DNA from: Pelagibacteraceae bacterium AG-461-B04
GTDB taxonomy: Bacteria > Pseudomonadota > Alphaproteobacteria > Pelagibacterales > AG-422-B15
Direction: 5' to 3'
NCBI GenBank assembly: GCA_003211835.1
Contig: QCRN01000002.1
Location: 69,393 to 133,392, forward strand
DNA: 64,000 bases
Shown: piece after piece, positions 6,598 to 37,100 of the stretch
Numbering within the stretch: position 1 is the stretch's first letter
Layout: each line of letters opens with the position of its first letter
Made by a program: the position numbers and the translations under genes
The notes under the pieces: model-generated
Database searches by the model: none
Told to the model about the DNA's origin: nothing
What the model saw: only the letters and a program-made list of their open reading frames with translations

Positions 6598-7374
6598 ATG
6601 ATTATAGACGACGATAAATCCCAAAAATTAATTACATTGGTATTTAATGCGGGACAAGAAATTGTAAGAATTTACAATAAAAAAGTTACTAAAAAGCTTA
6701 AATCAGACAATAGTCCTGTGACCAACGCAGATTTAAAAGCAAACTCTATAATATGCAGAGGATTAAGAAAATATTTTCCAAAAGTTCCTATCGTTTCAGA
6801 AGAATTAGATAACAGTCGTATAAAAAATAAAAAAATATTTTGGCTTGTTGACCCACTAGATGGAACCAAAGAATTTCTTAGGGGTAATGGTGAATTTACA
6901 GTTAATATTGCTCTTATTATTAATAAAAGACCTATTTATGGTTTAATTTATATGCCAGCTAAGAATAAGTTTTATTATACAAAGAATAAAAAATCATATT
7001 TTGCCAAATTTGATCAAAAAGGGAATCTAAAGAGTATAAAAGTTATAAAGGTAAAAAAAAGAAAGAAAAATATTTTGGTGTTTAGTCGCTCTCATGGCCT
7101 TTCAAAAGAAAAGATATTAGAAGCTAAAAAAGCTGTATTTAAGAAATTTAATGCTAATAAGATTATAAGAACAGGTAGTTCAATTAAATTATGCTATATA
7201 GCTGATGGTACTGCGAATATATATCCAAGACATGGCAGGACGATGGAATGGGATATTGCTGCAGGGGATGCGATCTTAAGATATGCAGGTGGCCGCATAA
7301 AAACTTTAGATAAAAAAATAATGAAGTATGGTAAACCAAATTTTAAAAATACGTCATTTATCGCCAAAAGTTAA
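6598..7374 (+). CDS. cysQ: 3'(2'),5'-bisphosphate nucleotidase CysQ (inositol monophosphatase family)
   Basis: 258 aa. Motifs WLVDPLDGTKEF and WDIAAGDAIL. Confidence 0.8.
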   Translation: MIIDDDKSQKLITLVFNAGQEIVRIYNKKVTKKLKSDNSPVTNADLKANSIICRGLRKYFPKVPIVSEELDNSRIKNKKIFWLVDPLDGTKEFLRGNGEFTVNIALIINKRPIYGLIYMPAKNKFYYTKNKKSYFAKFDQKGNLKSIKVIKVKKRKKNILVFSRSHGLSKEKILEAKKAVFKKFNANKIIRTGSSIKLCYIADGTANIYPRHGRTMEWDIAAGDAILRYAGGRIKTLDKKIMKYGKPNFKNTSFIAKS

Positions 7375-20622: not shown

Positions 20623-21222
20623 TTATGCATCGACAAATGCATTAAAGGAAAAGCACCTTCTTTCACCATCTCCTCTAAAAGGGTGAACGTCATGCATAAG
20701 AAATGATGGAAATATATATAAATCACCCACTCTGGGCTTAAAAGTCTCTCTGTGTTTCACGAGCGGTGGGCTATTTCTTGGAAGAGACACTCGACCATCA
20801 AAGAAAGAAATTAAACCAGCTAAATCTTTTTCTTTATTACGTTTAATTGAACTTGGTATCTTTAAATACCCTACTCCACTAATGTTACCTCTATGTAAAT
20901 GAGGTGGATTAAAATCTCCAGCAAATTGACTGACGATCCAAGCCTTTTCGATCCTTATTTTTTTTACTTTAATATTAAGTGTTTTATCGTAATAATCTTT
21001 TACAGATTTAATAATTTGTTTTTCAATCCCAATTTTTAAGATTTTTGAGGGTATCCTAAATTGCTGCTTCATACTTCCTACTAATCTGTGGTCATAATCG
21101 TATCTTTTTGAAAGTCTTTTATTATTAGATACCTGTTCAGAAAATTTATTTAGGCGAGCAACTGCATTTAAAGTCAGTTTTGTTTTTCCGATTGTAGGTC
21201 CAAATGGTTTGTATATCTTCAT
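20623..21222 (-). CDS. Putative 2OG-Fe(II) oxygenase (TIGR02466 / 2OG-FeII_Oxy_5-like)
   Basis: 199 aa. Motif PPHLHRGNISGVGYL followed by FPSFLMHDVHPF. As I recall, this family is common in marine bacteria and cyanophage/pelagiphage genomes. Confidence 0.6.
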   Translation of the reverse strand: MKIYKPFGPTIGKTKLTLNAVARLNKFSEQVSNNKRLSKRYDYDHRLVGSMKQQFRIPSKILKIGIEKQIIKSVKDYYDKTLNIKVKKIRIEKAWIVSQFAGDFNPPHLHRGNISGVGYLKIPSSIKRNKEKDLAGLISFFDGRVSLPRNSPPLVKHRETFKPRVGDLYIFPSFLMHDVHPFRGDGERRCFSFNAFVDA

Positions 21223-22279: not shown

Positions 22280-23410
22280 TTGATGTTTAAAGTACAAATC
22301 TCGGGAACTGGACTATACACACCCAAAGAAAAAATTTCTAATGAAGAATTAGTTGACTCGTACAATAAGTATGTGGATGAATTTAATTTATCAAACTCTA
22401 ACGATATAAATAATGGAAGTGTAGAGCCACTTGAAAAATCTAGCTCAGAGTTTATTGAAAAAGCATCAGGTGTAAAATCTAGATATGTTCAAAATAAATC
22501 AGGAATTTTGGATACATCCTTTATGCGTCCAAGACTTATTGAAAGATCTGAGGATCAAATATCCAATCTTGCAGAAATGGGAGTAATTGCAGCAAAAGAA
22601 GCTATAAAAAATTCCCAAGTCGATATTAAAGATATAAATGCTGTAATTGTTGCGTGCTCAAATTTAGAACGTGCCTACCCTGCTATAGCTATTGAAATCC
22701 AAAATGAATTAGGTATAGAGGGATTTGCATTTGACATGAATGTTGCCTGTTCCTCAGCTACTTTTGGAATTCAAGCCATTTTTGACATGATAAAAAGTGG
22801 GAGTATTACATCAGCCTTAATGGTCAATCCAGAAATTTGTACAGGTCATTTAAATTTCAAAGATAGGGATTGTCATTTTATATTTGGTGACGTTGCAACA
22901 GCTGTAGTTTTAGAGAGAATGAATGGGGAAATTCATAAAAACAATTCTTATGAAATACTTGGGACAAAACTCCTTACAGAGTTTTCTAATAATATAAGAA
23001 ATAATTATGGATTTCTGAATAGTTCTTCTCCCGAAGGAATCGGTAAGGCAGATAAACTGTTCCATCAAAATGGAAGAAAAGTATTCAAAGAAGTCATCCC
23101 TAAAGTTTCTAATTTAATAAAGGATCATTTAGAAGAAAATAAACTTTCCGCCGAAGATTTAAAGGGAATGTATTTGCATCAAGCAAATGAAAATATGAAT
23201 GTTCTTATTTCTAAATATGTACTTGGCAAAGAGGCGTCTAAAGATCTAGCTCCCGTCGTTCTTGATGAATATGCTAATACAAGTTCCGCAGGTTCAATAA
23301 TTGCTTTTCATAAACATAACGACTCACTAAAAAAAGATGATCTTGCAATTATTTGCTCTTTTGGGGCAGGTTATTCTGTGGGGAATGTTATTGTGAGAAA
23401 GATTGCTTAA
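22280..23410 (+). CDS. Long FabH-like beta-ketoacyl synthase III (thiolase fold)
   Basis: 376 aa. Cys-His-Asn triad contexts NVACSSATFG, YLHQANENMN and EYANTSSAGS. From memory, the N-terminal region ISGTGLYTP...FIEKASGVKSRY resembles the P. aeruginosa PA3286 class. The ATG at 22283 is probably the true start, since the track start is a TTG. Confidence 0.8.
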   Translation: MMFKVQISGTGLYTPKEKISNEELVDSYNKYVDEFNLSNSNDINNGSVEPLEKSSSEFIEKASGVKSRYVQNKSGILDTSFMRPRLIERSEDQISNLAEMGVIAAKEAIKNSQVDIKDINAVIVACSNLERAYPAIAIEIQNELGIEGFAFDMNVACSSATFGIQAIFDMIKSGSITSALMVNPEICTGHLNFKDRDCHFIFGDVATAVVLERMNGEIHKNNSYEILGTKLLTEFSNNIRNNYGFLNSSSPEGIGKADKLFHQNGRKVFKEVIPKVSNLIKDHLEENKLSAEDLKGMYLHQANENMNVLISKYVLGKEASKDLAPVVLDEYANTSSAGSIIAFHKHNDSLKKDDLAIICSFGAGYSVGNVIVRKIA

Positions 23411-23958
23411 AAATTTGGCTCCTTAGAGAAAAGCTTTCTTACTTTTGGTTCAAAGTATTCAAGAGAATAGGATTCATAATCTGGATCAAATGACTTTTGA
23501 TCCCACTTTTCACAAAAATCCACTGCATCTTGATAGTAAGGATGATCTTTGAATTTTTCTCTAGCATGTCGATCCCTTCCTATGTGATGAGCATAGTAAT
23601 ATTCTTGAAAAATCCCGTGATGAAGCATAATCCAATATACTTTTTCAGAGACATAGGGCCTTAAAACTGAGGCAACAAGTTGACTATGATTATATGGGGC
23701 AAGATTATCTCCAATATCATGTACAAGAGTTGCCACTACCATTTCTTCATCTGCGCCATCTTTTTCAGCTCGAGTTGCTGATTGAAGTGAATGCTCTAAC
23801 CTTGTTATTTGATAGCCATCAACTGAACTATCTAAATTTCTCAAAGCGTCTAATATTCTATCAGGAAGATCTTTTGAAAACTTTTCTTCATACTTACTTA
23901 AAAGATCATAATCTTCTTTTGTGCCGTCTTTCATCTGAGTAAATTTTACTTTTTCCAT
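23407..23958 (-). CDS. HD-domain protein, PhnZ/TmpB-like putative diiron oxygenase
   Basis: 183 aa. His/Asp ligand candidates LEHSLQSA (H56), LVHDIGD (H80-D81), YNHSQ (H91) and MLHHG (H113/114). The start codon directly abuts the stop of the upstream BBOX-like oxygenase (TAAATG). Confidence 0.6.
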   Translation of the reverse strand: MEKVKFTQMKDGTKEDYDLLSKYEEKFSKDLPDRILDALRNLDSSVDGYQITRLEHSLQSATRAEKDGADEEMVVATLVHDIGDNLAPYNHSQLVASVLRPYVSEKVYWIMLHHGIFQEYYYAHHIGRDRHAREKFKDHPYYQDAVDFCEKWDQKSFDPDYESYSLEYFEPKVRKLFSKEPNF

Positions 23959-25050
23959 TTATATTTCCTCTGATAATAATTTAAACTTACTTTCTGCGGA
24001 GTCATGGTCTATATATAATCCCTGCAGCCATCTATTGCCTTCAGCTGTATTATAACTTGTTCTGCCGTGAAGGGTTCGATAATTATTCATAATAATCAAA
24101 TCTCCCGGTTCTAAGCGAAACTTAAATATATATTTAGAAGAATTTATCATTTTATGCATTACTCTTTTTGACGCATAAAATTCATCAAGCTTTTTAGGGT
24201 CTTGATAAAAAACAAAATCCAGTCTGTTGCTATACTTTATTTGCTTTATCTCCCCTCGTTCACTTAACTTTATGATCTTGCCTGTTTTTTCCAGTATGGC
24301 ATCTTTGTCTTTAAATTTAAAATTGATAAGAGTATTCGTAAGAGTATTAAACGCATTTGGATTTTCATTTTTTAAGTCTTCTGCAACCTTAAACCCATCA
24401 ACAATTGTTGAGTCGCCTCCTTGGCAACTATTATGAATACAAAAAAGAAATTGAATAGAAGGTACTGGTTTTCGATATGGATTATCTGTATGAGACTCTA
24501 ATTCAATGGATGTATATGCTAAATCGTTTGGTTGTTTTTGAGACTTAACATTAAACAATTTTCCAAAATTAGTTTCTCTTATATATCCAATTTTTTTTGC
24601 AAAATTTATAATCTCACCATCTTCGGGTTTGAGTTTGCTGACAATTGCAAATCCGTATTTATGATAATATTCTAATATCTCATAAATTTGTTTATTTTCA
24701 TTTGCATTATAATCAAATTTAAGCTTTCTAAGTGATATACTGTCTTTATTCCAAAAAACTTTATCAGGAAGTCCTTTTGCTCTCTTTATTTCTTTAATTA
24801 AGTTTTTTATGCAATACTTAGCTACATGATTATCTGAGAATTTAATTAATAGTTTATCTTCGTCTAACTTATTTACTTCTTTGATTTCTAAATTTTCAAT
24901 GATTTTCTCTGGGTCATATAGTCGTTGTAGTGAATTTTGATCGACTGCTCCTTCTTCTAATGACCGTTCTCTCATCCATAAAGGATGAAGCTTATATTGC
25001 TCATCGCCAATAGAAAACCTTATTTCTTTTGAGTCATAATTAAAATCCAT
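23959..25050 (-). CDS. Gamma-butyrobetaine-hydroxylase-like Fe(II)/2OG oxygenase (TmpA-like candidate)
   Basis: 363 aa. N-terminal DUF971-like segment (LHPLWMRERS). TauD-fold facial triad ESHTDNPY (HxD) and RTLHGR. DLAYT, FLFCIHNSCQGGDSTIVDG and LQGLYID parallel the BBOX family. Confidence 0.65.
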   Translation of the reverse strand: MDFNYDSKEIRFSIGDEQYKLHPLWMRERSLEEGAVDQNSLQRLYDPEKIIENLEIKEVNKLDEDKLLIKFSDNHVAKYCIKNLIKEIKRAKGLPDKVFWNKDSISLRKLKFDYNANENKQIYEILEYYHKYGFAIVSKLKPEDGEIINFAKKIGYIRETNFGKLFNVKSQKQPNDLAYTSIELESHTDNPYRKPVPSIQFLFCIHNSCQGGDSTIVDGFKVAEDLKNENPNAFNTLTNTLINFKFKDKDAILEKTGKIIKLSERGEIKQIKYSNRLDFVFYQDPKKLDEFYASKRVMHKMINSSKYIFKFRLEPGDLIIMNNYRTLHGRTSYNTAEGNRWLQGLYIDHDSAESKFKLLSEEI

Positions 25051-25064
25051 AAAAAAATATAAAA

Positions 25065-27011
25065 CTAATTTTTTAATTCTTCAATATTTTCATATTCCGA
25101 TAAACAAGTAGGATTGGCTAAAGCCTCTAAATTCTTTATATTCATGCCATTGATTATATCTCTCACAGTAATTTCTGCTATTTTACCACTTCTTGTTCTA
25201 GGTATATCACTTACTTTAATAATTTTTGCGGGAACATGTCTTATAGAATTAGAAGATCTAATATTATATTTAATTCTATCAATAATAACTTGATCAAGTT
25301 CAATATCTTTTTGAAGTTTCACAAATAAAATAATTCTTGTGTCATTGTTCCAAGACTGGCCAACTACAATAGACTCAACAATTTCATCTATTTGCTCGAC
25401 AGACCTATATATTTCGGCAGTTCCAATTCTAATTCCACCAGGATTTAATGTTGAGTCTGACCGTCCGTAAATGACTATTCCATTATTTTGAGATATTTTA
25501 GCGTAATCACCTTGTGTCCATACATTCTTAAATTTTGAAAAGTATGATTTAATATATTTCTCTTTATTTAAGTCATCCCAAAATCCAATCGGCATAGATG
25601 GAAGTGGTGATTTACATACCAGCTCACCTTTTTGAAGCGTGCCCTGACCTTTTTCATCAAGAACATCTACATCTACCCCAAGACACTTACTTTGTATTTC
25701 GCCAGAGTAAACTGGCAACATTGGATTGCCGCCAACAAAGCAAGAAACGATGTCTGTCCCTCCACTAATGGACGCTAGATGTAAATCTTTTTTAATGAAT
25801 CCATACACATACTCAAAACTCTCACTTATAAGTGGCGACCCTGTGCTTAATATTGATTGAAGTTTACCTAAATTATATTTTTCTAGAATATTTACCTTAT
25901 CATTTCTTAAAGCATCAATAAATTTTGCACTTGTTCCAAAGCACGTTATTTCTTCTTCTTCAGCAATTTTAAAAAGGGTTTCTTTCTCTGGATAAAATGG
26001 GGATCCATCATAAAGTACTAATGAAACTCCTGACGCTAAACCTGTAATAAGCCAATTCCACATCATCCATCCACAGGTTGTATAATAAAATAATTTGTCA
26101 CCTATTTTAAGATCACAGTGAAGCTGTTGCTCCTTTGCATGTTGTAGAAGTGGTCCACCAGTATTATGAACTATGCATTTAGGTTTACCAGTTGTTCCAC
26201 TAGAATAAAGAATATACATTGGGTCATTAAATGAGTTTTCTTCGAAAATAATTTTTTCTTGATAAGTTTCTTTTTGAAAAATTGAATTTAAACTTATTTC
26301 ATCTATTCCTTTATCCAGTTTCTTGTCTGGATAATTAATACAAATGGTATGTTCGAGTGTTTTGATATTATTAATTACATTTTTTATTTTCTTTTCAATA
26401 TCAAATTTTTTTCCACCATATAAATAAATTTTAGAATATAACAATATTTTCGGTTTTATTTGGTTAAAACGATCTAAAATAGCTGCCTCGCCAAAATCTG
26501 GTGAGCAAGATGACCAGATCGCCCCAATAGAGTTCACCGCTAAAAATGCAATTAGTGTCTCAGCACTGTTTACCGCAACAGCCGTAATCCGATCTCCTTT
26601 TTTAACCCCTATAGATCTAAAATAGTTAGCTAATTTTGACGTTTTTGATACTAAATCTTCCTTATAATAACTTTTCTTGAAACCAAGTTCATTGATAAAG
26701 GTAATCGGGCATGAGTTAAGATTAGATAAAATATTTTCGGCATAATTAACTTTAATATTTTTAAAAAATTCTTGATTGTATATAAATTTATCCTTTTCAA
26801 TAACTGGGCTAGAGCTTCCTTTGTACTGTATGCCTAAATAATCTATTAAGCTTAACCAAAATTCAGCGGGATAACTAATGCTCCAGGACCAGATTTTACT
26901 ATAATCAAAACTAAATTGAATTTTGGTTTTTTCTTCTAAGAAAAGAAAATAATTATATAGGTTTGTTTTTTTTACTCTTTCCTTAGATGGGCTCCAAAGC
27001 AACCTTGGCAT
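25065..27011 (-). CDS. Acetoacetate--CoA ligase (acetoacetyl-CoA synthetase)
   Basis: 648 aa. Characteristic N-terminus LLWSPSKERVKKTNLYNYF...YSKIWSWSISYPAEFW. AMP-binding motifs YSSGTTGKPKC and YGRSDSTLNPGGIRIGTAEIY. Confidence 0.8.
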   Translation of the reverse strand: MPRLLWSPSKERVKKTNLYNYFLFLEEKTKIQFSFDYSKIWSWSISYPAEFWLSLIDYLGIQYKGSSSPVIEKDKFIYNQEFFKNIKVNYAENILSNLNSCPITFINELGFKKSYYKEDLVSKTSKLANYFRSIGVKKGDRITAVAVNSAETLIAFLAVNSIGAIWSSCSPDFGEAAILDRFNQIKPKILLYSKIYLYGGKKFDIEKKIKNVINNIKTLEHTICINYPDKKLDKGIDEISLNSIFQKETYQEKIIFEENSFNDPMYILYSSGTTGKPKCIVHNTGGPLLQHAKEQQLHCDLKIGDKLFYYTTCGWMMWNWLITGLASGVSLVLYDGSPFYPEKETLFKIAEEEEITCFGTSAKFIDALRNDKVNILEKYNLGKLQSILSTGSPLISESFEYVYGFIKKDLHLASISGGTDIVSCFVGGNPMLPVYSGEIQSKCLGVDVDVLDEKGQGTLQKGELVCKSPLPSMPIGFWDDLNKEKYIKSYFSKFKNVWTQGDYAKISQNNGIVIYGRSDSTLNPGGIRIGTAEIYRSVEQIDEIVESIVVGQSWNNDTRIILFVKLQKDIELDQVIIDRIKYNIRSSNSIRHVPAKIIKVSDIPRTRSGKIAEITVRDIINGMNIKNLEALANPTCLSEYENIEELKN

Positions 27012-27032: not shown

Positions 27033-28457
27033 TTAAGCAATGTGAAGTGCTTTAGTTTCAAGGTAATCTTCTAGCCCCATGTCTCCACCTTCTCGGCCAT
27101 TACCAGATTCTTTATATCCTCCAAAAGGTGAACCATAATTATAACCACCGCCATTAACATGAACACCGCCTGCTCTTAATTGCCTTGAGACACGTTCAGC
27201 TCTTTCTTTATCTCCCGTTTGCAGATAGGCAGCAAGACCATAAGGAGTATCATTTGCTATTCTGATTGCCTCATCCTCATCATCAAAAGGGATTATCACT
27301 AGTACTGGACCAAATATTTCTTCTTGAGCAACTCTCATATTATTATTTACATCAGAAAAAATTGTTGGCTTTACAAACCATCCTTTTTCATGACCATCAG
27401 GCTTTCCAAGGCCCCCAGCTAGTAATTTTGCCCCCTCATCAATACCAACTTGAATCATATTTTGAACCCGATCAAATTGTATCTGATCAAAGAGTGGTCC
27501 GAGATGATCACCATCTAGTGTTGGATCACCTACCATAATTTCTTCAGCGGTTTTTTTTGCAATATCAACTACCTCATCGTAGCATTTTTTTTCTACCAGT
27601 AACCTTGTAGGAGCATCACAAGATTGTCCTGTATTAAACATACATTCATTTACTGAAGCTTTTACTTTTTCCTCTAAGTCACAATCCGCAAATACAATAT
27701 TTGGTGATTTGCCACCTAATTCTAATGTTACTTTTTTTACAGTCTCAGCTGACTCAATAGTAACTGACTTACCTCCTCTTTTTGAGCCAGTAAATGACAT
27801 CATTTCTATATCTGGATGCCGAGACATCGACACTCCTACTCCTTCTCCATCTCCATGTACTAAATTAAATACGCCATCAGGAACTCCAGCCTCATCAAGA
27901 ATTTCAGCGTAAATCATCGCTGATAAAGGTGTATGCTCAGATGGCTTTAAGATACATGTGCATCCTGTCGCAATAACTGGAAGGACTTTCAATGTTATTT
28001 GATTAATGGGCCAGTTCCAAGGAGTAATTAAACCACAAACTCCTATTGGCTCTTTTAATAGTACATCCGAATTGGAAAGAACAATTTTTTCTTCATGCTT
28101 CTTTAACGCATCAATAAAACCATCTAAATGTCCTATAGCAGCATCTGCCTGTGCATCTCGAGCCATTCTATGAGGAGCTCCCATTTCTGATGTCATCGCA
28201 TTAGCAAGATCTTCAAATCTTTTTTCAGAGATCAGCCGAATTTTATTTAGTAATTCTAAACGATCATTCTTTGTAGTTTTAGAAAAGGTATTAAATGCAT
28301 TTTTTGCAGCACTTACAGCCATATCTACATCTGTGGAATTACCAAGAATTATCTCACCTATCAAATCTTCGGTTGCTGGGTTGAGAACCGCCATTGTTTT
28401 AGTTGAATTGGGTTTTACCCATTTACCGTTAATATAAAATTTTTGAAGATTTTCCAT
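27033..28457 (-). CDS. NAD(P)-dependent aldehyde dehydrogenase
   Basis: 474 aa. Motifs ITPWNWP, FTGS, catalytic Glu in LELGGKSP, catalytic Cys in [12 protein letters not shown], and EEIFGPV. Substrate is not assignable from sequence alone. Confidence 0.85.
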
Positions 28458-28526
28458 TTTGTTTTTTATTACATACTATACTATTCAAATTGTAAATTCT
28501 TTTTAATATTGTACCTTCATTATCTT

Positions 28527-29411
28527 ATGAATAAAAATGTTATAATTTCTTGTGCAGTTACCGGATCAGGGGACTCTGTTGGAAAGCATCCTAATATTCC
28601 TGTTACTCCTCAACAAATAGCTGATGCATCTATTGAGGCTGCTAATGCTGGAGCTGCTATAGCCCATATTCATGTTAGAAATCCTGAAACTGGAAAGGGA
28701 TCTCGAGATAATGAGCTTTACAAAGAAGTAGTTAGCCGAATTAGAGATAGCGGGACTAATATCATAATTAATCTCACAAGTGGAATGGGAGGAGATATAG
28801 AAATTGGTCCAGAAGATGATTTATTAAACTTTGGTTCTAATACAGATTTTGTAAATGCACTTGAAAGATTGAGTCATGTTGAAGAACTACTTCCTGATAT
28901 ATGCTCCTTAGATTGTGGTACTCTAAATTTTGGTGATGGAAATATGATCTATGTTGGAACCCCTGAACAACTAAGAATAGGTGCTAAGAGAATTCAAGAA
29001 TTAGGAGTTAAACCAGAACTTGAAGTCTTTGATACAGGTCATTTATGGTTTGCAAATCAGATGTTAAAAGAAGGCTTACTAGATCAGCCATCATTGTTTC
29101 AAATTTGTCTAGGTATACCCTACGGTGCGCCTGCAACAACTGGGTCAATGAAAAATATGGTTGATATGATACCTAAAGGAAGTAACTGGGGCGCATTTGG
29201 AATCGGAATTAATCAAATGCCGATGGTAGCACAAGCAGTTTTATTAGGAGGCAATGTTAGAGTTGGACTTGAAGATAATCTTTATTTAGAAAAAGGTGTT
29301 TATGCTACGAATGGATCACTTGTTGAAAAAGCCACTACAATAATTAATAATTTAGGCTCAAATGTAATGGGTCCTGATGAAGCAAGAATACATCTTGGAT
29401 TAAAAAGTTGA
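28527..29411 (+). CDS. BKACE-family (DUF849) beta-keto acid cleavage enzyme, dehydrocarnitine-cleaving type by context
   Basis: Start moved to the internal Met ([13 protein letters not shown]). Motifs [11 protein letters not shown] and VRVGLEDN. Directly upstream of, and overlapping, the carnitine dehydrogenase gene. Confidence 0.8.
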
Positions 29412-30379
29412 AAAAAAAAATTGTTTCGATTATTGGAACAGGTGTAATTGGTGCTGGATGGGCGGCACGATTTCTTGCTAAAGGCTATATTGTTAAAGCT
29501 TATGACCAAAATATTGACTCACTTGAGAAATTAAAAAAAAATATTCGTTTTGCATTTAAAAGTCTTAAAAAGGTAGGTTTAAATAAAAATGCTTCATTGA
29601 AGAAACTTAAAGTTTTTACTAATCTGAATGACGCTTTACATGAAACAACCTTTGTTCAAGAAAACACACCTGAAAATGAAAAAATTAAAAAAAATATTCT
29701 AAAAAAAATTGATAATATCATTCCAAAAAATATTATAATTGCATCCAGTTCCTCTGGATTACTGCCATCAAAAATTCAATCTACATGTAAATTTCCAGAA
29801 AGGGTATTAATTGGACATCCATTTAATCCAGTATACTTGCTACCACTTGTTGAGATTGTAGCTGGTAAAAAGACTAGTCATACAAATGTAAAGAAATTAA
29901 AAAAAATATATGAATATATTGGAATGCGGCCCCTTGTTGTTCGAAAAGAGATAGAAGGATACATTTCAGATAGACTTCAAGAAGCTTTATGGCGTGAGGC
30001 CTTGCATATAATAAATGATGGCGTAGCATCAACTGAAGAAGTTGATGACGCTATTGTGTACGGGCCTGGATTAAGATGGGCTTTTATGGGAGTATGTTTA
30101 ACATTTCATTTAGCTGGTGGAGAAACGGGAATGAAACATATGCTAGAGCAGTTTGGTCCTGCTCTAAAGCTGCCTTGGACTAAATTGAAAGCACCTGAAT
30201 TATCAAGTAAACTAAAAAAATCAATGATTTCTGGCACGAAAAAACAGGCTGGGAAATTTAGTATCAAAGAGCTTGAGAAGCAAAGAGATTTATTTTTGAT
30301 TGAAATTATGAAAACTTTAAATAAAAATCAAAAGAATAAGTTTCCAAATTGGGACAAAAAATATAACAAATTTAAATAA
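29408..30379 (+). CDS. lcdH: L-carnitine 3-dehydrogenase
   Basis: 323 aa. Rossmann motif [15 protein letters not shown]. Motifs [32 protein letters not shown] and [18 protein letters not shown] match my memory of Pseudomonas carnitine dehydrogenase. No C-terminal thioesterase extension. Confidence 0.85.
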
Positions 30380-30382
30380 GCA

Positions 30383-31525
30383 ATGAGTCAAAATCCATCT
30401 ATATTATCATTGAAACGTAATGGAAAATCAATACTAGTTGATTGGAGCGATGGTGAACAAAGTAAATTTAATTTTTTATGGCTGAGAGATAATTGTCCAT
30501 CAGAAGTTCATCCAACCGCAAGAGAGAGAACTTTCAACCTTTTAACGGTTACAGATGATATTCACCCAAAGTCTTATAAAATAAATGATAAAGGGGCGCT
30601 TGAGATTGAATGGAGTGAAGGTGATCATACAAGCTACTATGATAGCGATTGGCTAAGACATAATTGCTACACACTCAAAAGTAAAAAAACATATATTTCG
30701 CCTTATTTTCTATGGGATCATAGTATAGAAACTAATTTTGAGGACATTCAAATAGATTATAAAGAAATTATTAGTGGAGATGATGGAATTAAAAAGTGGC
30801 TTGAGCAGCTTCACTACAAAGGTATTTCTATTGTTAAGAATGCACCTACGGATAAGGAATCTGGTTTTGATGTAATTGCTAATATTAGTCACCATAGAGA
30901 AACATTTTTTAAAACACCTTTTGAAGTTATTGATATTCCTAATCCTAACAATTCTGCTTACACCGCAGCTGCATTAAGGAACCATTTAGATCTTCCATAC
31001 TATGAAATAGCACCAGGATATCAATTCTTGCATTGCTTGATCAATAATGCTTCTGGAGGCGAATCGGTTGCGGTAGATGGGTTCAAAGTTGCTAGTTACA
31101 TGAAAGAAAATTATACAGAATATTTTGAAACTCTCTTAGAGACGCCTGTAAAATTTGTAAATAGAGATTATACTTCAAATGCTATAAGGGTAATGCATAA
31201 ACCTCTATTTTCTTTAGATCATAATAATGATTTTAACGATATAAGGTTTAGTGTTGCTTATATGGGAGTTATGGACTGTAACCCCAACCAAATGGATAAG
31301 TTTTACGAAGCTTACCGAAAACTAATCGCTTTACTTCACGATCCTATATTTGAAATAAATTTCAGACTTAAAGCTGGGGATATATTCAGCTTTAATAATA
31401 GACGAGTACTTCACGGTCGAAAAGAATACGATGCCAATTCTGGTGAGAGACACTTACAGGGATATTATATCGATAGAGATGAAATAATAGGAAGACTAAA
31501 TTATTTGAATAATTTAAATCCTTAA
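30383..31525 (+). CDS. Gamma-butyrobetaine dioxygenase (BBOX-type Fe(II)/2OG oxygenase)
   Basis: 380 aa. N-terminal FNFLWLRDNCPSEVH (DUF971). Motifs NSAYTAAALRNHLDLPYYE (HxD), PGYQFLHC, RVLHGR and LQGYYIDRDE. Confidence 0.75.
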   Translation: MSQNPSILSLKRNGKSILVDWSDGEQSKFNFLWLRDNCPSEVHPTARERTFNLLTVTDDIHPKSYKINDKGALEIEWSEGDHTSYYDSDWLRHNCYTLKSKKTYISPYFLWDHSIETNFEDIQIDYKEIISGDDGIKKWLEQLHYKGISIVKNAPTDKESGFDVIANISHHRETFFKTPFEVIDIPNPNNSAYTAAALRNHLDLPYYEIAPGYQFLHCLINNASGGESVAVDGFKVASYMKENYTEYFETLLETPVKFVNRDYTSNAIRVMHKPLFSLDHNNDFNDIRFSVAYMGVMDCNPNQMDKFYEAYRKLIALLHDPIFEINFRLKAGDIFSFNNRRVLHGRKEYDANSGERHLQGYYIDRDEIIGRLNYLNNLNP

Positions 31526-32595
31526 TTTTTAAGAATATCGGCAACATTATTTCTTGAGATTAGGCCTACGAATTTATTCTTATCATCAAATACATTTAAT
31601 TCATGCTCGCTTTCAAGTATTTTTGGCAAACAGCTTTCTATATTGTCATCTAGTTTTACAAAAGCATCAGAATTATTCTGTACTCCTGAAAAATTCATAA
31701 TTGATTTTATTTTTAAAACTTTAGCTCTATTAACGTCTTTTACAAAGTTTTTGACGTACTCATCAGCTGGACTCATTAATATTTCCTCAGCAGTGCCATC
31801 TTGAACAAGTTTACCGCCGTTAAGTATTGAAATACGATCACCTAATTTTAATGCCTCATCAAGATCATGGGTTATAAACATAATAGTTTTTTTTAAATTT
31901 TTTTGTAACTCTAATAGCTGGTCTTGCATATCAGTTCTGATTAGTGGATCAAGAGCACTAAAAGCCTCATCCATCAGCAGAATATCTGGATCAGTTGCAA
32001 GAGCTCTTGCTAAGCCGACCCTTTGTTGCATTCCTCCTGATAACTGATTAGGAAACTTATATTCAAAACCATTTAAGCCCACTTTATCAATCCAGAACTT
32101 TGCTTTGTGATTTGACTCTGCTTTTTCTATATTTTTTATACTGAGACCAAATTTAACATTATCAATAATATTCTGATGAGGAAAAAGAGCAAACCTCTGA
32201 AAGACCATACCAGTTCGATTTCTTCTGAATTCAAGTAATTCAGAGTTATTCAGTTTTGTAATATCTTGTTCATCAATTAATACACTTCCCTCTGTTGGTT
32301 CAATCAATCTGTTTATATGTCTAATTAATGTTGACTTGCCTGACCCAGATAAACCCATGACTACCTGTATAGATTGTTCAGCAACATTCAAATTGATGTC
32401 ATCTAAACCTAATACATGATTATATTTAGTAAGTAGTTCATCTTTTGACATACCATTACTTACTTTTGGAATATATTTTTTAGAGTTATTCCCAAAAATT
32501 TTATAAAGGTTAGATATTTTGATCTTCGTCTTATTCACGAGAACCTGACCTATGTTGTTGTAATCTTTTTCCAAAAGATTGAGAAACTCGATCAA
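31522..32595 (-). CDS. proV: Glycine betaine/quaternary amine ABC transporter, ATP-binding protein with C-terminal CBS region
   Basis: Walker A GLSGSGKST, signature LSGGMQQRV, Walker B ILLMDEAFS. The track start overlaps proW by 65 nt. A GTG at 32538 (VNKTKIKISNLYKIFG) overlaps the proW stop as GTGAATAA and is the more likely start. Confidence 0.85.
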   Translation of the reverse strand: MIEFLNLLEKDYNNIGQVLVNKTKIKISNLYKIFGNNSKKYIPKVSNGMSKDELLTKYNHVLGLDDINLNVAEQSIQVVMGLSGSGKSTLIRHINRLIEPTEGSVLIDEQDITKLNNSELLEFRRNRTGMVFQRFALFPHQNIIDNVKFGLSIKNIEKAESNHKAKFWIDKVGLNGFEYKFPNQLSGGMQQRVGLARALATDPDILLMDEAFSALDPLIRTDMQDQLLELQKNLKKTIMFITHDLDEALKLGDRISILNGGKLVQDGTAEEILMSPADEYVKNFVKDVNRAKVLKIKSIMNFSGVQNNSDAFVKLDDNIESCLPKILESEHELNVFDDKNKFVGLISRNNVADILKN

Positions 32596-33427
32596 ATATT
32601 ATTGCTAATGCGACAATAGCAAGTCCATTAAGCAATCCCATAGTAAAATACTGGTTGGTAATTGCCTTTAATACTGGCTGACCAAGACCCTTAACTCCAA
32701 TCATCGAAGCTATAACAACCATTGCTAGTGCCATCATTATAGTTTGGTTAATTCCTGCAAATATAGTAGGTAAAGCAAGTGGCAATTGAACTCTAAATAA
32801 CTTTTGCCTCTTATTTGCGCCAAAAGCATCTGCCGCTTCAAGAACTTCCTTATCAACTTCTCTAATTCCTAAGTCAGTTAGTCTAATAATTGGGGGGATG
32901 GCATAAATAATAACTGCGAGTAAACCTGGGATTTTTCCAATTCCTAAAAGCATTACGACTGGAATCAAATACACAAATGAAGGCATAGTTTGCATCACAT
33001 CAAGAATAGGGGTAATGGCGGCTCGAGCTCGGTCAGAGTTTGACATTGCAATGCCAATTGGTATTCCAAGACCTATAGACATGAAAGTACATACGCCAAT
33101 GATACTGACAGTTGACATTGTATCTTCCCACATACCAAAGTAGCCTATAAGAAGTAGTGCAAATAATGATCCAATTGTTAGATAGATACTTCTGCTGCCC
33201 AAATAAACTAGTATAAGTATTACTAAAATTACTAATGGCCAAGGTGAGTTTTGTAATAGTTTTTCAAACCAAACTAAAAAATATAATACAGGATCAAATA
33301 CAGCTTCAATTGCATCGCCATATTCTCTTGAGAAGTTCCTATAAGCCCCATCTATGGACTTTTTAAATATCCGAAGACTTTCCTTACTCATTTCAGGAAA
33401 AGTGATAAATAATTCTGATAAATTCAT
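32531..33427 (-). CDS. proW: Glycine betaine/quaternary amine ABC transporter permease
   Basis: 298 aa, multi-TM. EAA-loop EAADAFGANKRQKLFRVQLPLA. Confidence 0.85.
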   Translation of the reverse strand: MNLSELFITFPEMSKESLRIFKKSIDGAYRNFSREYGDAIEAVFDPVLYFLVWFEKLLQNSPWPLVILVILILVYLGSRSIYLTIGSLFALLLIGYFGMWEDTMSTVSIIGVCTFMSIGLGIPIGIAMSNSDRARAAITPILDVMQTMPSFVYLIPVVMLLGIGKIPGLLAVIIYAIPPIIRLTDLGIREVDKEVLEAADAFGANKRQKLFRVQLPLALPTIFAGINQTIMMALAMVVIASMIGVKGLGQPVLKAITNQYFTMGLLNGLAIVALAIIFDRVSQSFGKRLQQHRSGSRE

Positions 33428-33437
33428 TGAATGTAAT

Positions 33438-33458
33438 GCGGGCTAATTATTAGCCCGC
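33438..33458 (-). promoter_or_regulatory. Intercistronic stem-loop between proX and proW
   Basis: GCGGGCTAA-TTA-TTAGCCCGC is a perfect 9-bp GC-rich stem, exceptional in this AT-rich DNA. It lies 12 nt after the proX stop and 10 nt before the proW start. Confidence 0.5.
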
Positions 33459-33470
33459 AATATTATTTTT

Positions 33471-34478
33471 TTATAAAGCTGCTTCTACTTTTGAACGTGC
33501 ACTACTGTCTACCCAGTCATGCCATTCAGTGTAATTTTCTAAGAAGTAAATTGCAGTGTCTTCACCAGTTGCCTGATTATCATCTTTCCAAGCAAGCAAG
33601 GCATTTACAGTTGAGTTAGGAAGTGCTCGTTTTGAGATATATTCCATACCCGTTGCTGACTCATTTTTGAAGTTGTCAGTCACAACTGTATATACTTCAG
33701 ATACAACCCATGCGTTAGGTTTTGGATTTGCACATCCGTCTTGAGAAGTACAATTGTCCCACTCTTCTTTACTGTGTTCTACTCCAAAGCTAAGTTTTTT
33801 CATTGGGTATTTTCCCAATACAGCTGTTGGTGCCCAGTAATATCCAAGCCATCCCTCGCCTTTGTTATAAGCTTCAGCAATTGCTCCAGCAAGAGCGCCA
33901 CCAGAACCGGGATCTACAAGCCTAAAACCTTTGGCTTCCATTCCATATGCATTAAACAAATTACCAGTACTTATTTGACAATTCCAACCTGAGGGACAAG
34001 TATAAATTGCACCATTTCCTCCTTCAGGATGAGGAAATAATTCAGGACGTTCTAGTACATCATATACAGTTTGAATGTTGGGGTTAGCATCGGCCATATA
34101 TTGCGGTATCCACCAGCCTTCTTCACCAGTGTCAGATAAAACTTCAGCTGCGTAATGTAATCTTCCTTCGCTCGTTGCTGCATCAAGTGCAACTCTAACA
34201 GCATTTATCCATAATTCAGGAGCTACATCTGGCTCACCTTTTTCCATCATAGATGTCGCGGTTGGCATTGTATCACCTGGAACAAGCTCTACATCACAAC
34301 CATAACCATTTTCAAGAATCATCTTATCGACGTGCGCAAACATTTCAGCAGATGCCCAGTTCATTTCAGCAACTGTTATTGTACCGCATGCATTGGCTGT
34401 CGAACTAAGAGATCCGAAACTTACTGCAAAGACAGCAGCAAAAAAAATTCTCTTAAAAAAATTCATTATTTTCTCCAA
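33471..34478 (-). CDS. proX: Glycine betaine/quaternary amine ABC transporter substrate-binding protein
   Basis: 335 aa. Signal peptide ending SSTANA-C. Trp/Tyr-rich (WWIPQY, GYYWAP), as expected for an aromatic-cage betaine binder. First gene of proX-proW-proV. GC content is visibly higher than in the neighbours. Confidence 0.8.
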   Translation of the reverse strand: MEKIMNFFKRIFFAAVFAVSFGSLSSTANACGTITVAEMNWASAEMFAHVDKMILENGYGCDVELVPGDTMPTATSMMEKGEPDVAPELWINAVRVALDAATSEGRLHYAAEVLSDTGEEGWWIPQYMADANPNIQTVYDVLERPELFPHPEGGNGAIYTCPSGWNCQISTGNLFNAYGMEAKGFRLVDPGSGGALAGAIAEAYNKGEGWLGYYWAPTAVLGKYPMKKLSFGVEHSKEEWDNCTSQDGCANPKPNAWVVSEVYTVVTDNFKNESATGMEYISKRALPNSTVNALLAWKDDNQATGEDTAIYFLENYTEWHDWVDSSARSKVEAAL

Positions 34479-34565: not shown

Positions 34566-35462
34566 CTAAACTACTGATTTATATAATTTATTTCCAGCAT
34601 AAATTTCAATCAATGGAGCGCTCATAACAAATACCGCGCCAATAAATTCTCTCATCGTAATAATTTCGTTGGCTAAAAGATATGCAGATATAATGCCAAT
34701 AACAACTTCGAACATAAGTAAAATTCCAGCTCTACCTGGATCTACTTGATCTTGGCCGAAAGTGATAAGCCAGTATCCAGGCAGCAACCAAATGAAAGCA
34801 AAAATGAGAATGATTATGTAAGTATTATATATTATTTCAGTATTGAAACCCGCAAGTACTTGTCCATTAGGTAAAAGTGTCGCAATAATAACAAATAAAC
34901 CACCAATGAGAATAAAGATTGAAGTTCCAAAGTTAACGTCCAATTCCTTATTAATTCTTATGATAGTTGCACAAACTGACCACAAAAAACCTGAGGCGAT
35001 GCCAAATATATCAGCAAGAGTGCTTGGCAAAATATTACCTTTATCTAACCCTGTTATAATAAAAAGACCCGTGAAACCTGCTGCTATGGAAAAAGCCCTA
35101 TATATAGTTAAAGGAGTTCTTAAAAATACAATCTCAATAATTGTACTCCAAACAGCTGTAAGGTAAAAAAATATTAAAATCCTTGCAACGTTACCGCGTA
35201 ACAGTCCCTCATTATATAGGCACATTGCCGCTGCACCAGCAGTCGCTGCAATTATTGTAAGAATTATATTTTTTTTAGTAAGTAAATGTAGGTTCCGCAG
35301 TGAAAAACTTAGAAGAAAAAAACCAGCAAGCATAAAGCTTAATGTTAGAGGAATTGCATTATTGCTTGCATACTCATTTAACAAACGAAGAGGATACCAC
35401 CATGTTCCCCAAAGCAGGGTAGATAATACTATTGCCAAACTTGGATTTAAGTTTTTTAACAT
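34566..35462 (-). CDS. EamA/DMT-family transporter (10 TM)
   Basis: 298 aa, highly hydrophobic, with two internally repeated 5-TM halves. Confidence 0.7.
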   Translation of the reverse strand: MLKNLNPSLAIVLSTLLWGTWWYPLRLLNEYASNNAIPLTLSFMLAGFFLLSFSLRNLHLLTKKNIILTIIAATAGAAAMCLYNEGLLRGNVARILIFFYLTAVWSTIIEIVFLRTPLTIYRAFSIAAGFTGLFIITGLDKGNILPSTLADIFGIASGFLWSVCATIIRINKELDVNFGTSIFILIGGLFVIIATLLPNGQVLAGFNTEIIYNTYIIILIFAFIWLLPGYWLITFGQDQVDPGRAGILLMFEVVIGIISAYLLANEIITMREFIGAVFVMSAPLIEIYAGNKLYKSVV

Positions 35463-35507: not shown

Positions 35508-37100
35508 ATGAAATTAAATAACTTTGATTATATTATAATTGGAGCTGGTAGCGCTGGTTGTGTGCTAGCTAATCGCCTTTCATCAAATACCTCTATTAAT
35601 ATCCTACTTATAGAATCGGGACCTTCAGACAAGACTTGGAAAACTGCAATGCCTGCAGCACTGCTTTATACAATGCACGATCCAAAATATAACTATCTTT
35701 ATGAATCAGAGCCAGAACCATTTATGCATAATAGGACTATGTTCTGCCCAAGAGGTAAGATGTTGGGAGGAAGTTCCTCGCACAATGGAATGGTTCATGT
35801 TAGAGGCAATGCAAAAGATTTTGATAACTGGGGCCAATTAGGTTTAACAGATTGGACTTACGATAAAGTTTTACCCTATTTTAAAAAATCTGAGTCAGTT
35901 GAGGGCTTGGACTCAAATTTTCGGGGAGACTCAGGACCTTTGAAACTGTCAAGATCCACAAATGGTAATATTCTTAGTCAAGTTTATTTAAATGCCGCGC
36001 AACAAGCTGGGTATCAAATAAATAATGATATGAATGGCAAAAAACAAGAAGGTTTTGGTTTAATGGATACAACCATTTTTAATGGAAAGAGACAAAGTAC
36101 GAGCGTTACGTATCTTCATCCAATAAAACACAGATCTAACTTGGAAATATTAACGAACGTAACTGTAAATAAGATACTATTTGAAAATAAAAAAGCTGTT
36201 GGAGTTGAATGCAAAGCGAATGGTAAAAATAAAAAGTATTTTTCAACTAGAGAGGTCCTTCTTTCCGCTGGGGCTATAAATTCGCCTCATTTACTCATGC
36301 TTTCTGGAATTGGTCCAGAAAATGAATTATCAAAACATAGTATTGAGCCAGTAGAGTGTTTGGAGGGAGTTGGTAAAAACTTACAAGATCATCTTGAAAC
36401 CTATGTTCAATATAAATGTAAAAAACCTGTAACACTGCACAGTGCTCAGAATCCATTAAAAATGGCATTGATAGGTGCCGAGTGGTTTTTGTTTAAAACA
36501 GGTGTTGCTGCACACTCTAATCTAGAAACAGGTGGCTTTGTGAGTAGCAATGAAATGTCTGATTATCCAAATATACAATTCCATTTTTTTCCATCTTTAG
36601 TTTTAGATCATGGTAGAAAGAGTTCTACCTGCCATGCTTTTCAAGCCCATGTTGGACCGATGCGACCTACTAGCAGAGGATCAGTAAAATTAAAATCAAA
36701 TAATCCAAATGATGCACCTTCAATCCAGTTCAATTATATGCAAACCGAACATGATCTTAGAGAAATGCGGGAAGGAATAAAAATTGCAAGGGAAATATTT
36801 AATCAAAAAGAATTCGATGAATATAGAGGGGATGAAATCTCACCAGGAAGCAATATAAATAATGATGAAGATCTTAATAATTTTATAAGAGATAAAGGAG
36901 ATACTGCATACCACCCATCATGTACGTGTAAAATGGGAAAAGATGATCTATCAGTGGTAGACGAGGAACTCAAAGTATATGGAATAGATAGTTTAAGGGT
37001 CGTAGATGCATCAATTATGCCTAATATCATTACTGGTAATTTAAACGCATCAACAGTAATGATTGCTGAAAAAGCGTCTGATATAATTGTAAATAATTAA
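35508..37100 (+). CDS. GMC-family FAD oxidoreductase, choline dehydrogenase-like
   Basis: 530 aa. Motifs DYIIIGAGSAGCVLANRLS, GGSSSHNGMVHVRG, YHPSCTCKMG and VVDASIMP. Context next to the betaine transporter. Confidence 0.8.
   Translation: MKLNNFDYIIIGAGSAGCVLANRLSSNTSINILLIESGPSDKTWKTAMPAALLYTMHDPKYNYLYESEPEPFMHNRTMFCPRGKMLGGSSSHNGMVHVRGNAKDFDNWGQLGLTDWTYDKVLPYFKKSESVEGLDSNFRGDSGPLKLSRSTNGNILSQVYLNAAQQAGYQINNDMNGKKQEGFGLMDTTIFNGKRQSTSVTYLHPIKHRSNLEILTNVTVNKILFENKKAVGVECKANGKNKKYFSTREVLLSAGAINSPHLLMLSGIGPENELSKHSIEPVECLEGVGKNLQDHLETYVQYKCKKPVTLHSAQNPLKMALIGAEWFLFKTGVAAHSNLETGGFVSSNEMSDYPNIQFHFFPSLVLDHGRKSSTCHAFQAHVGPMRPTSRGSVKLKSNNPNDAPSIQFNYMQTEHDLREMREGIKIAREIFNQKEFDEYRGDEISPGSNINNDEDLNNFIRDKGDTAYHPSCTCKMGKDDLSVVDEELKVYGIDSLRVVDASIMPNIITGNLNASTVMIAEKASDIIVNN

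Follow-up and report, generated by a model that had tools for sequence, protein, structure and literature searches.

The question raised by this locus is which substrate is processed by two adjoining genes of Pelagibacteraceae bacterium AG-461-B04, encoding an Fe(II)/2-oxoglutarate (2OG) oxygenase, hereafter OX1, and a small HD-domain protein. Both lie in a stretch of 64,000 nucleotides (positions 69,393 to 133,392 of contig QCRN01000002.1, assembly GCA_003211835.1), analysed as a whole and referred to below as the window. A preliminary description of this DNA proposed either a TmpA/TmpB-type pair, which converts 2-trimethylaminoethylphosphonate (TMAEP) into glycine betaine and phosphate, or a variant with a new substrate, and it is the latter option that the evidence favours. 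Based on their sequences, the two proteins appear to represent a third family of hydroxylase/HD-oxygenase pairs, widespread and sister to TmpA/TmpB. We lean towards the view that the substrate is some trimethylammonium compound, not TMAEP, which OX1 would hydroxylate and the HD protein would then cleave oxidatively, with glycine betaine as the product. The pair and the two genes preceding it are as follows, with positions counted from the first letter of the window.

27033 to 28457, minus strand: aldehyde dehydrogenase (ALDH), first gene of the proposed operon (Pfam Aldedh, 524 bits)
25065 to 27011, minus strand: acetoacetate-CoA ligase (AACS; NCBIfam PRK03584, 841.5 bits, above 639; TIGR01217, 748 bits, above 520.9)
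23959 to 25050, minus strand: Fe(II)/2-oxoglutarate oxygenase (OX1), 363 aa, TmpA/BBOX-like (Pfam TauD, 139.7 bits)
23407 to 23958, minus strand: HD-domain protein, 183 aa, predicted diiron oxygenase, sister to PhnZ/TmpB

Both open reading frames (ORFs) were found where the preliminary description had placed them, and the TAA stop codon of OX1 (23961-23959) directly abuts the ATG start codon of the HD gene (23958-23956), leaving a gap of 0 nt. A GAGGA Shine-Dalgarno-like motif occurs about 7 nt before this start, within the OX1 gene. With gaps of 21 nt between ALDH and AACS and of 14 nt between AACS and OX1, the head-to-tail order makes a four-gene operon, ALDH-AACS-OX1-HD, plausible. A scan for promoters and terminators between 22 and 32 kb returned sites no more frequently than in shuffled sequence and was uninformative as to operon limits. 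The pair is compositionally unremarkable in a window of 33% G+C, and near-identical relatives of its proteins come from Pelagibacteraceae, which marks the genome as one of SAR11. A word-indexed search detected at least 7,977 relatives, and a full scan of 1.84 billion representative proteins matched the HD protein to 2,284 clusters at 50% identity (E <= 0.001). Such a number of relatives, together with synteny in eight further SAR11 contigs, establishes that OX1 and HD are real genes and not chance ORFs.

The HD protein had been viewed from the outset as a dinuclear-iron oxygenase rather than a phosphohydrolase, a proposal that our analyses strengthen. Six predicted diiron ligands, H56, H80, D81, H91, H114 and D153 (in a WDQ motif), are each at least 90% conserved among 44 diverse family members and align one-to-one with those of PhnZ (H34/H56, H58/H80, D59/D81, H80/H91, H104/H114 and D161/D153). 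Of the candidates listed initially, H56, H80-D81, H91 and H114 stood; H113 did not, H114 being the conserved fourth histidine, and the sixth ligand, D153, had been overlooked. A Pfam search gave no match for this protein, and the NCBIfam models of PhnZ (TIGR03276, 42.3 bits for a cut-off of 214.6) and TmpB (NF049941, 38 bits for a cut-off of 300) both remained below threshold, matching residues ~47-87 only. Yet when a profile of the family was compared with the whole PDB, only PhnZ (E 2.5e-14) and TmpB (E 9.4e-14) were significant. Foldseek searches with an AlphaFold2 model of high confidence (predicted local distance difference test score 97.5) retrieved PhnZ (template-modelling (TM) score 0.68) and TmpB (TM 0.66), then MIOX (E 0.055), and these three enzymes filled ranks 1 to 11, with the best HD hydrolases far behind (E > 0.3). 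These features correspond to the published descriptor for HD-domain oxygenases (PMC8177086). With its complete six-ligand set and matches confined to PhnZ, TmpB and MIOX, the assignment of the HD protein to this class of diiron oxygenases is well supported at the level of sequence and predicted structure.

For OX1, the BBOX architecture initially attributed to it was largely upheld, the alignment placing the iron triad at H187-x-D189...H328, the 2OG arginine at R340 and the LQGLYID tail at 342-348; its DUF971-like N-terminus is marginal, the Pfam GBBH-like_N match reaching 21.3 bits for a cut-off of 22.8. Three NCBIfam models recognise the protein below their cut-offs, namely TmpA (NF049936, 339 bits for 400), gamma-butyrobetaine dioxygenase or BBOX (TIGR02409, 293.4 bits for 414.75) and trimethyllysine dioxygenase or TMLD (TIGR02410, 186.3 bits for 268.3). 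In the PDB, its best match is TmpA (6npb, 197.5 bits), human BBOX scoring 157.7. The aromatic cage F162, F166 and Y179 occupies BBOX positions 177, 181 and 194, which hold the trimethylammonium group of the substrate, N191 and N292 holding its carboxylate (PMC4497603). From this conserved cage and from the transporters described below, we infer that the substrate of OX1 is a trimethylammonium compound. At the positions of the two asparagines, both of which are present in all TmpA sequences examined, OX1 has D176 and S274, the latter followed by R276-L-D278. The aspartate recurs in all 80 of its best metagenome relatives, for which the serine column fell in an alignment gap, and both residues of the signature are present in the oxygenases of genome loci and in four fusion proteins. 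Trimethyllysine hydroxylase (TMLH) has the same aspartate (Asp231), thought to bind the alpha-ammonium group of its substrate (PMC7764450), and this is the only one of these positions that OX1 shares with it. With TmpA, OX1 has in common the HTDNPYR motif (R193) and R276. In a neighbour-joining tree (346 columns, 100 bootstraps), OX1 fell inside a clade with 100% bootstrap support of Asp/Ser-x-Arg-Leu-Asp oxygenases paired or fused with the HD family, while TmpA (6NPB), plasmid orthologues from Labrenzia and Aliiroseovarius, and a second Halomonas gene formed a separate clade, again with 100% support. The TmpA model gives 316-346 bits to OX1 orthologues that are likewise paired with a member of the HD family. 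Thus, the score below cut-off, the separate clade and the Asp/Ser in place of the Asn pair indicate that OX1 is not a TmpA orthologue.

The predicted active-site lining of the HD protein also departs from that of PhnZ and TmpB, residues E27, H62, K108, R158 and E162 being aligned with Y49, D84, Q118, E150 and Q154, respectively. The HDxGH motif of PhnZ and TmpB is HDxGD in the HD family (D84), with a glutamate in eukaryotic fusions. D84 and Q118 are kept across nearly all family members examined, and some have His or Asp in place of E150. The substrate of PhnZ is bound through its amine by E27 and through its hydroxyl by H62 (PMC7916636; residue roles also in PMC8177086). The YxxE motif, a substrate-gating loop located ten residues ahead of the first histidine in TmpB and PhnZ (PMC8177086), has V46 and Y49 at its Tyr and Glu positions, and the conserved Y49-x-x-(T/S/D)52, three residues nearer H56, may represent a shifted analogue. 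Relative to PhnZ and TmpB, 11 residues are deleted between the HD dyad and the third histidine. The family has conserved arginines of its own, R63 and, in bacterial members, R53, and its branch splits from TmpB and PhnZ with 81% support. The HD protein is thus no TmpB orthologue and appears to represent a new family sister to PhnZ/TmpB. Alignment of the pair to TmpA/TmpB, PhnZ and BBOX, as first advocated in the preliminary description, shows that the cage is kept, the Asn pair and the PhnZ/TmpB contact residues being replaced. The parallel between D176 and Asp231 of TMLH, combined with the changed HD residues, suggests a mode of binding unlike that of BBOX or TmpA for the group on the far side of the hydroxylated carbon.

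The association of the two genes recurs well beyond SAR11. Genome loci were searched with a closer alignment of 11 HD sequences, the 44-sequence alignment being too diverse, and in 13 of the 80 loci with an HD relative an oxygenase gene occurs immediately upstream, in the same orientation and separated by 1-10 nt. These included Marinomonas, Alteromonas, Halomonas, Onishia and Hellea. A metagenome scan with OX1, from which the 80 best relatives were taken, revealed an HD gene directly after the oxygenase in 46 of the 71 contigs with room downstream, and some six more have it 2 kb upstream. Ten long HD relatives were examined, and eight of these proved to be fusions of TauD/GBBH_N and HD domains (including P0200, P0273 from Saprolegnia, P0141 from Dracoamoeba, P0144, P0197, P0210 and P0230). 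Four of them carry the Asp/Ser-x-Arg-Leu-Asp signature of OX1. Two could be traced to a source, the eukaryotes Saprolegnia and Dracoamoeba, and these are of the BBOX-like Asn type rather than Asp/Ser. In Saprolegnia, the fusion, whose annotation reads gamma-butyrobetaine dioxygenase, retains both asparagines of BBOX, which hints at an HD domain acting on carnitine-like products. PhoF, the fungal fused PhnY-PhnZ (PMC10574752), was considered as the identity of these fusions and rejected, as they carry TauD/GBBH-type domains and belong to the HD family. The Asp/Ser-type oxygenase and the HD protein are therefore coupled. At a second SAR11-like site, adjoining ppc (phosphoenolpyruvate carboxylase) and a gene of the inositol-monophosphatase family, there is a signature oxygenase 40-46% identical to OX1, either without an HD gene (L148, L149, L160, L163, L164, L169 and L171) or followed by HD and EamA genes (L159 and L165).

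Members of the HD family also occur in other settings. In SAR11, unpaired core copies that are 56-66% identical and have the same active-site residues lie in the order dnaB, RND-type transporter, cvpA, purF, HD, gshA and gshB (L004, L008, L013, L023, L077 and some 25 others, near position 8001-8543). A SAR324 contig (L047, 7209-9387) contains, in a row, a class II aldolase gene, an HD gene and a PhyH-family 2OG oxygenase gene, the last two overlapping by 8 nt, and a Mantoniella-related fusion combines the HD with a fatty-acid hydroxylase domain. The family is thus paired or fused with three families of hydroxylases, TauD/GBBH, PhyH and fatty-acid hydroxylase. Together with the unpaired core copies, the SAR324 and Mantoniella-related contexts give the impression of a family that partners hydroxylases in general, or works on already hydroxylated substrates. 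In the public annotation of the Joint Genome Institute (JGI), members are named 'predicted HD phosphohydrolase'.

Whether the pair duplicates TmpA/TmpB can be considered from genomes that have both. In Halomonas urmiana (L018, 6858-15692), an OX1/HD-type pair (6858-8588) is followed by TmpA (563 bits, above 400) and TmpB (263.5 bits), and then by an aminophosphonate oxidoreductase (750.9 bits) and PhnU2, an ABC permease of the 2-aminoethylphosphonate (AEP) type (798.5 bits). Two soil contigs (L094 and L097) have an OX1/HD-type pair alongside a TmpA-signature pair, and TmpA/TmpB-like pairs and a PhnR-like GntR regulator were identified in L094-L098. The occurrence of two pairs side by side argues for different substrates, and hence against redundancy of the OX1/HD-type pair with TmpA/TmpB. 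With both pairs in one cluster, Halomonas urmiana is suited to comparing their substrates.

The surroundings of the pair in the window point to quaternary amines. The following features flank the four genes listed above.

22280 to 23410, plus strand: FabH-like KAS III gene (PRK07515, 597.9 bits), convergent with the HD gene
28524 to 29411, plus strand: BKACE, candidate 3-dehydrocarnitine cleavage enzyme (Pfam BKACE, 318.6 bits)
29408 to 30379, plus strand: L-carnitine dehydrogenase-like protein (CDH) of the 3-hydroxyacyl-CoA dehydrogenase family (NCBIfam, 371.7 bits, below 414)
30383 to 31525, plus strand: second GBBH-like 2OG oxygenase (OX2), 380 aa (GBBH-like_N, 55.3 bits; TauD, 127 bits)
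31522 to 34478, minus strand: ProV, ProW and OpuAC-type (ProX) components of a betaine/choline ABC transporter (proV, 350.6 bits; ProW, 263.7 bits; OpuAC, 182.7 bits)
34566 to 35462, minus strand: EamA-family transporter (Pfam EamA)
35508 to 37100, plus strand: choline dehydrogenase BetA (NCBIfam PRK02106, 769.4 bits, above 605)

The BKACE, CDH-like and OX2 genes diverge from ALDH on the opposite strand. The block is syntenic in the eight other SAR11 contigs, strictly so for the seven genes of the two divergent operons, and its content identifies the neighbourhood as a conserved SAR11 quaternary-amine island. OX2, which is 29% identical to OX1, scores 304.9 bits with the BBOX model and 268.9 bits with that of TmpA, and groups weakly with human BBOX in the neighbour-joining tree; it is a candidate gamma-butyrobetaine hydroxylase, and a better one than OX1, from which it lies 5 kb away. 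CDH and BKACE convert carnitine to betainyl-CoA and acetoacetate, BKACE releasing the acetoacetate from 3-dehydrocarnitine (PMC9321204). The preliminary description regarded AACS and ALDH as odd partners for the pair, yet the divergent carnitine operon and the island account for both. Since the BKACE of that operon yields acetoacetate, AACS would serve to activate it. ALDH scores 428.9 bits with the NCBIfam model of betaine-aldehyde dehydrogenase, short of the cut-off of 668.6, and is a candidate betaine-aldehyde or 4-trimethylaminobutyraldehyde dehydrogenase, either activity fitting the island. A complete-looking route from gamma-butyrobetaine or carnitine to glycine betaine is formed by OX2, the CDH-like protein and BKACE (28524-31525, plus strand) with AACS (25065-27011, minus strand). 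The CDH-like protein has 323 aa and is devoid of the thioesterase domain found in the 495-aa form (PRK07531). No betainyl-CoA thioesterase is visible in the island, and the related loci L024 and L037 do have a 4HBT thioesterase. No phosphonate, Pho or phosphate genes occur near the pair in SAR11, so that the context lends no support to the earlier suggestion of a C-P-lyase-independent source of phosphorus.

Several side observations concern the borders of the island. The KAS III and HD stop codons overlap by 4 nt, an arrangement kept in every syntenic contig. The EamA gene likewise follows the oxygenase-HD pair in the SAR11-like contigs L159 and L165. The stretch leading from the island to the core genome (19049-21993) holds a few unrelated genes, encoding histone-deacetylase-family and Sua5/YciO proteins, a 2OG-FeII_Oxy_5 oxygenase (20623-21222), a 153-aa unannotated ORF and a GIY-YIG protein. 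An island reported in Arctic SAR11 (PMC12421898) was examined as a possible match and set aside as related but different, its BBOX(1) having an N-terminus like that of OX2 and not OX1, with no HD gene listed.

Elsewhere, the genes next to the pair vary. BCCT transporters accompany it in Marinomonas and Hellea, the latter with an MttB-family methyltransferase. Genes resembling betB-betA are located directly upstream in L113, L119, L122 and L125, and BKACE or CDH genes adjoin the pair in L108, L138, L141 and L143. In Halomonas gemina, its neighbours are a GMC oxidoreductase, an ALDH and an enolase-superfamily gene. A LysR regulator is adjacent in many loci, and in Marinomonas and Alteromonas the pair is otherwise alone. 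The ALDHs of other loci are only 31-41% identical to that of the window and need not be orthologous to it. Judging from gene content, the theme common to these loci is quaternary-ammonium catabolism toward glycine betaine.

A two-step mechanism can be proposed for the pair. OX1 would bind a trimethylammonium compound in the cage formed by F162, F166 and Y179 and hydroxylate it close to the ammonium group, probably on the second carbon from the nitrogen as in BBOX and TmpA. The HD protein would then hold the resulting hydroxyl on one iron of its six-ligand diiron site and catalyse an O2-dependent four-electron cleavage beside the carbinol carbon, which would itself become a carboxylate. Homology and pairing make this sequence of hydroxylation followed by diiron cleavage highly probable as a class of reaction, in agreement with the class proposed at the outset, a BBOX/TmpA-like 2OG hydroxylase coupled to a diiron HD oxygenase. 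As product, glycine betaine would be the most likely, or else a different betaine from which the island makes it. This agrees with an island that imports quaternary amines and channels gamma-butyrobetaine, carnitine and choline into glycine betaine. The substrate is probably not a phosphonate, meaning that a C-C bond would be cleaved; that it is some phosphonate, TMAEP included, is doubtful, and there is a slight chance that it is something else altogether. By analogy with SmaO/SmaX (PMC12186529), one candidate is a carboxylate betaine (beta-alanine betaine or a homologue), which would undergo alpha-hydroxylation and oxidative decarboxylation. Other candidates are carnitine-type compounds (N+-CH2-CH(OH)-X), an amino-acid betaine of the trimethyllysine type, or a phosphonate other than TMAEP. 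A bolder proposal, which we advance tentatively, places the HD protein in a third branch of diiron HD oxygenases, a very large one (over 2,000 clusters at 50% identity, core in most SAR11 and hydroxylase-fused in protists). The HD protein would cleave a C-C and not a C-P bond, adjoining the carbon that bears the hydroxyl in a trimethylammonium metabolite. Its possible substrates would then be carnitine-type N+-CH2-CH(OH)-X compounds, an alpha-hydroxy betaine or 3-hydroxy-trimethyllysine, with glycine betaine or gamma-butyrobetaine as the product.

A number of observations weigh against a non-phosphonate substrate or a strict coupling of the two proteins. The pair recurs by TmpA/TmpB-like pairs, an aminophosphonate oxidoreductase, an AEP permease and a PhnR-like regulator, which keeps a phosphonate substrate in play, and the characterised close relatives of the HD protein, PhnZ, TmpB, PhnZ1 and PhoF, all cleave C-P bonds (PMC10574752). 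R193 and R276, arginines that OX1 shares with TmpA and that are absent from BBOX, could bind a phosphonate, and R63 and R53 of the HD protein could replace the cationic residues lost from its active site. In addition, 18 SAR11-like AT-rich marine contigs have the signature oxygenase with no HD neighbour, and in SAR11 the HD family is mostly represented by core genes that stand unpaired, indicating that one-to-one coupling is not universal. The phosphonate readings take two forms. The pair could be a far-diverged isofunctional TmpA/TmpB, as no NCBIfam model or PDB entry matches OX1 better than TmpA, the HTDNPYR motif and R276 are common to both, PhnZ and TmpB are the sole sequence relatives of the HD protein in the PDB, and glycine betaine would suit the island. 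This identity, the one first proposed for the locus, now appears quite unlikely: both TmpA and TmpB scores fall below their cut-offs, in the latter case by far, OX1 forms a clade apart, the substrate-contact positions are changed (N191 to Asp and N292 to Ser in OX1; the YxxE Glu, H62, K108 and R158 all replaced in the HD protein), SAR11 offers no phosphate-scavenging context, and redundancy is improbable where TmpA/TmpB stands beside the pair in Halomonas urmiana or TmpA-signature pairs accompany it in L094 and L097. The other form is C-P cleavage of another phosphonate, such as a differently N-substituted or longer aminoalkylphosphonate, in a role complementing TmpA/TmpB where an organism has both pairs. 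The TmpA/TmpB-type pair, oxidoreductase and PhnU2 permease of Halomonas urmiana, the pairs and regulator in L094-L098 and the C-P-cleaving habit of all characterised HD relatives are in its favour. We consider it unlikely nonetheless, since most contexts contain betaine, choline and carnitine genes but no phosphonate genes, acidic or neutral residues have taken the place of those that in PhnZ/TmpB touch the substrate hydroxyl or surround the active site, and in SAR11 the family is core, between purF and gshA.

Two further explanations dispense with phosphonates. According to one, OX1 would perform a TMLH-type hydroxylation of an amino-acid betaine and the HD protein would cleave the resulting beta-hydroxy-alpha-amino acid to gamma-butyrobetaine or its aldehyde, after which ALDH, OX2, CDH, BKACE and AACS would lead to glycine betaine, so that every gene of both divergent operons is used. 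D176 at the position of TMLH Asp231, the presumed alpha-ammonium binder (PMC7764450), the acidic D84 and E150 and basic R63 of the HD protein, which would suit an amino-acid moiety, the strict synteny of the seven genes in SAR11 and the precedent of SmaX, a known HD enzyme cleaving a C-C bond in a beta-hydroxy amino acid (PMC12186529), are all compatible with this scheme. We nevertheless hold it to be very unlikely, as OX1 matches the TMLH model less well than either of the other two (186 bits, TmpA reaching 339), Marinomonas and Alteromonas have the pair accompanied by nothing but a LysR regulator, and parsimony is the sole argument. To our knowledge, neither BCCT nor ProVWX transporters are known to carry alpha-amino acids. 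Finally, the HD protein might be an ordinary metal-dependent phosphohydrolase, or have a function unrelated to OX1, its adjacency being incidental. Its public name, the distance of most SAR11 copies from any oxygenase and the predominance of hydrolases among HD-domain proteins (PMC8177086) would be in line with this. The complete set of six diiron ligands, the restriction of significant relatives, in sequence and in structure, to three known oxygenases, and recurrent pairing or fusion with TauD/GBBH, PhyH and fatty-acid hydroxylases make it most improbable. Hydroxylation and oxidative cleavage of a trimethylammonium compound other than TMAEP is the reading that we retain.

If so, the HD family would add to the known enzymes a widespread HD oxygenase whose active site is lined differently and whose substrate is probably new, present in SAR11 both as an island-borne pair and as an unpaired core copy. 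NCBIfam (June 2026) holds no model for either the OX1 or the HD family, and the literature on COG4341, on HD-domain oxygenases since 2020 and on betaine-linked HD oxygenases yielded no characterisation of the latter; the HD oxygenases found in the searchable literature are MIOX, PhnZ, PhnZ1, TmpB, PhoF and SmaX only. SAR11 are the most abundant marine heterotrophs and rely on glycine betaine and its kin as sources of glycine and methyl groups. An extra O2-dependent route into glycine betaine would thus bear on marine carbon and nitrogen cycling. Should C-C cleavage be correct, the pair would represent a new oxygen-dependent route in marine quaternary-amine cycling, and many 'phnZ' counts in Pelagibacterales would not report phosphonate use. 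Estimates of marine phnZ abundance are orders of magnitude apart: a survey based on the KEGG, TIGRfam and/or COG annotation databases assigned 45% of marine phnZ to Pelagibacterales (PMC9381506), whereas in another, which resolved subclades of PhnZ, true AEP-PhnZ proved rare (PMC8316502). The SAR11 HD family, a 'predicted HD phosphohydrolase' for JGI, may be what the former survey counted, and if the counted proteins do belong to it, the marine potential for phosphonate oxidation is overestimated.

Among known systems, the closest is TmpA/TmpB of Leisingera caerulea (PDB 6NPB-D and 6NPA), which the pair resembles in its hydroxylase-then-HD order and tight coupling, in the GBBH-like N-terminus, TauD fold, HxD...H triad, cage positions, HTDNPYR motif and arginine at BBOX position 294 of OX1, in the six ligands and fold of the HD protein (TM 0.66), in glycine betaine as a likely product, and in the LysR regulator adjoining many loci. 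The pair differs from TmpA/TmpB by its scores (339, below 400, and 38, far below 300), its separate 100% clade, the changes from Asn to Asp and from Asn to Ser, the loss of the YxxE Glu, H62 and K108, the 11-residue deletion, and its occurrence in the same locus as true TmpA/TmpB. BBOX (PDB 3O2G) and TMLH share with OX1 the GBBH-like N-terminal domain, triad, 2OG arginine and aromatic cage, the Phe/Phe/Tyr cage being that of Pseudomonas BBOX, but OX1 has neither carboxylate-binding Asn of BBOX and scores below the cut-offs of both models; we know of no instance in which BBOX or TMLH works with an HD oxygenase. PhnY*/PhnZ (PDB 4MLM, 4MLN and 4N71), acting on 2-aminoethylphosphonate, and PhnZ1, acting on hydroxymethylphosphonate, follow the same logic of a hydroxylase and then a diiron HD oxygenase, with ligands that align 1:1. 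In contrast to the present pair, the PhnY* partner is PhyH-like, HD-PhnZ identity is 23-25% over the structural alignment, the substrate-contact residues of PhnZ are replaced in the HD protein, and the SAR11 pair has no phosphonate gene context. SmaO/SmaX, which converts aspartate to aminomalonate in a ribosomally synthesised and post-translationally modified peptide, SmaX following a 2OG hydroxylase (PMC12186529), and MIOX illustrate HD-domain oxygenases cleaving a C-C bond beside a hydroxylated carbon. SmaX, however, has a single iron, with half of the ligands absent, whereas the HD protein keeps all six, and MIOX works without a hydroxylase and is a much weaker structural match to the HD protein (E 0.055).

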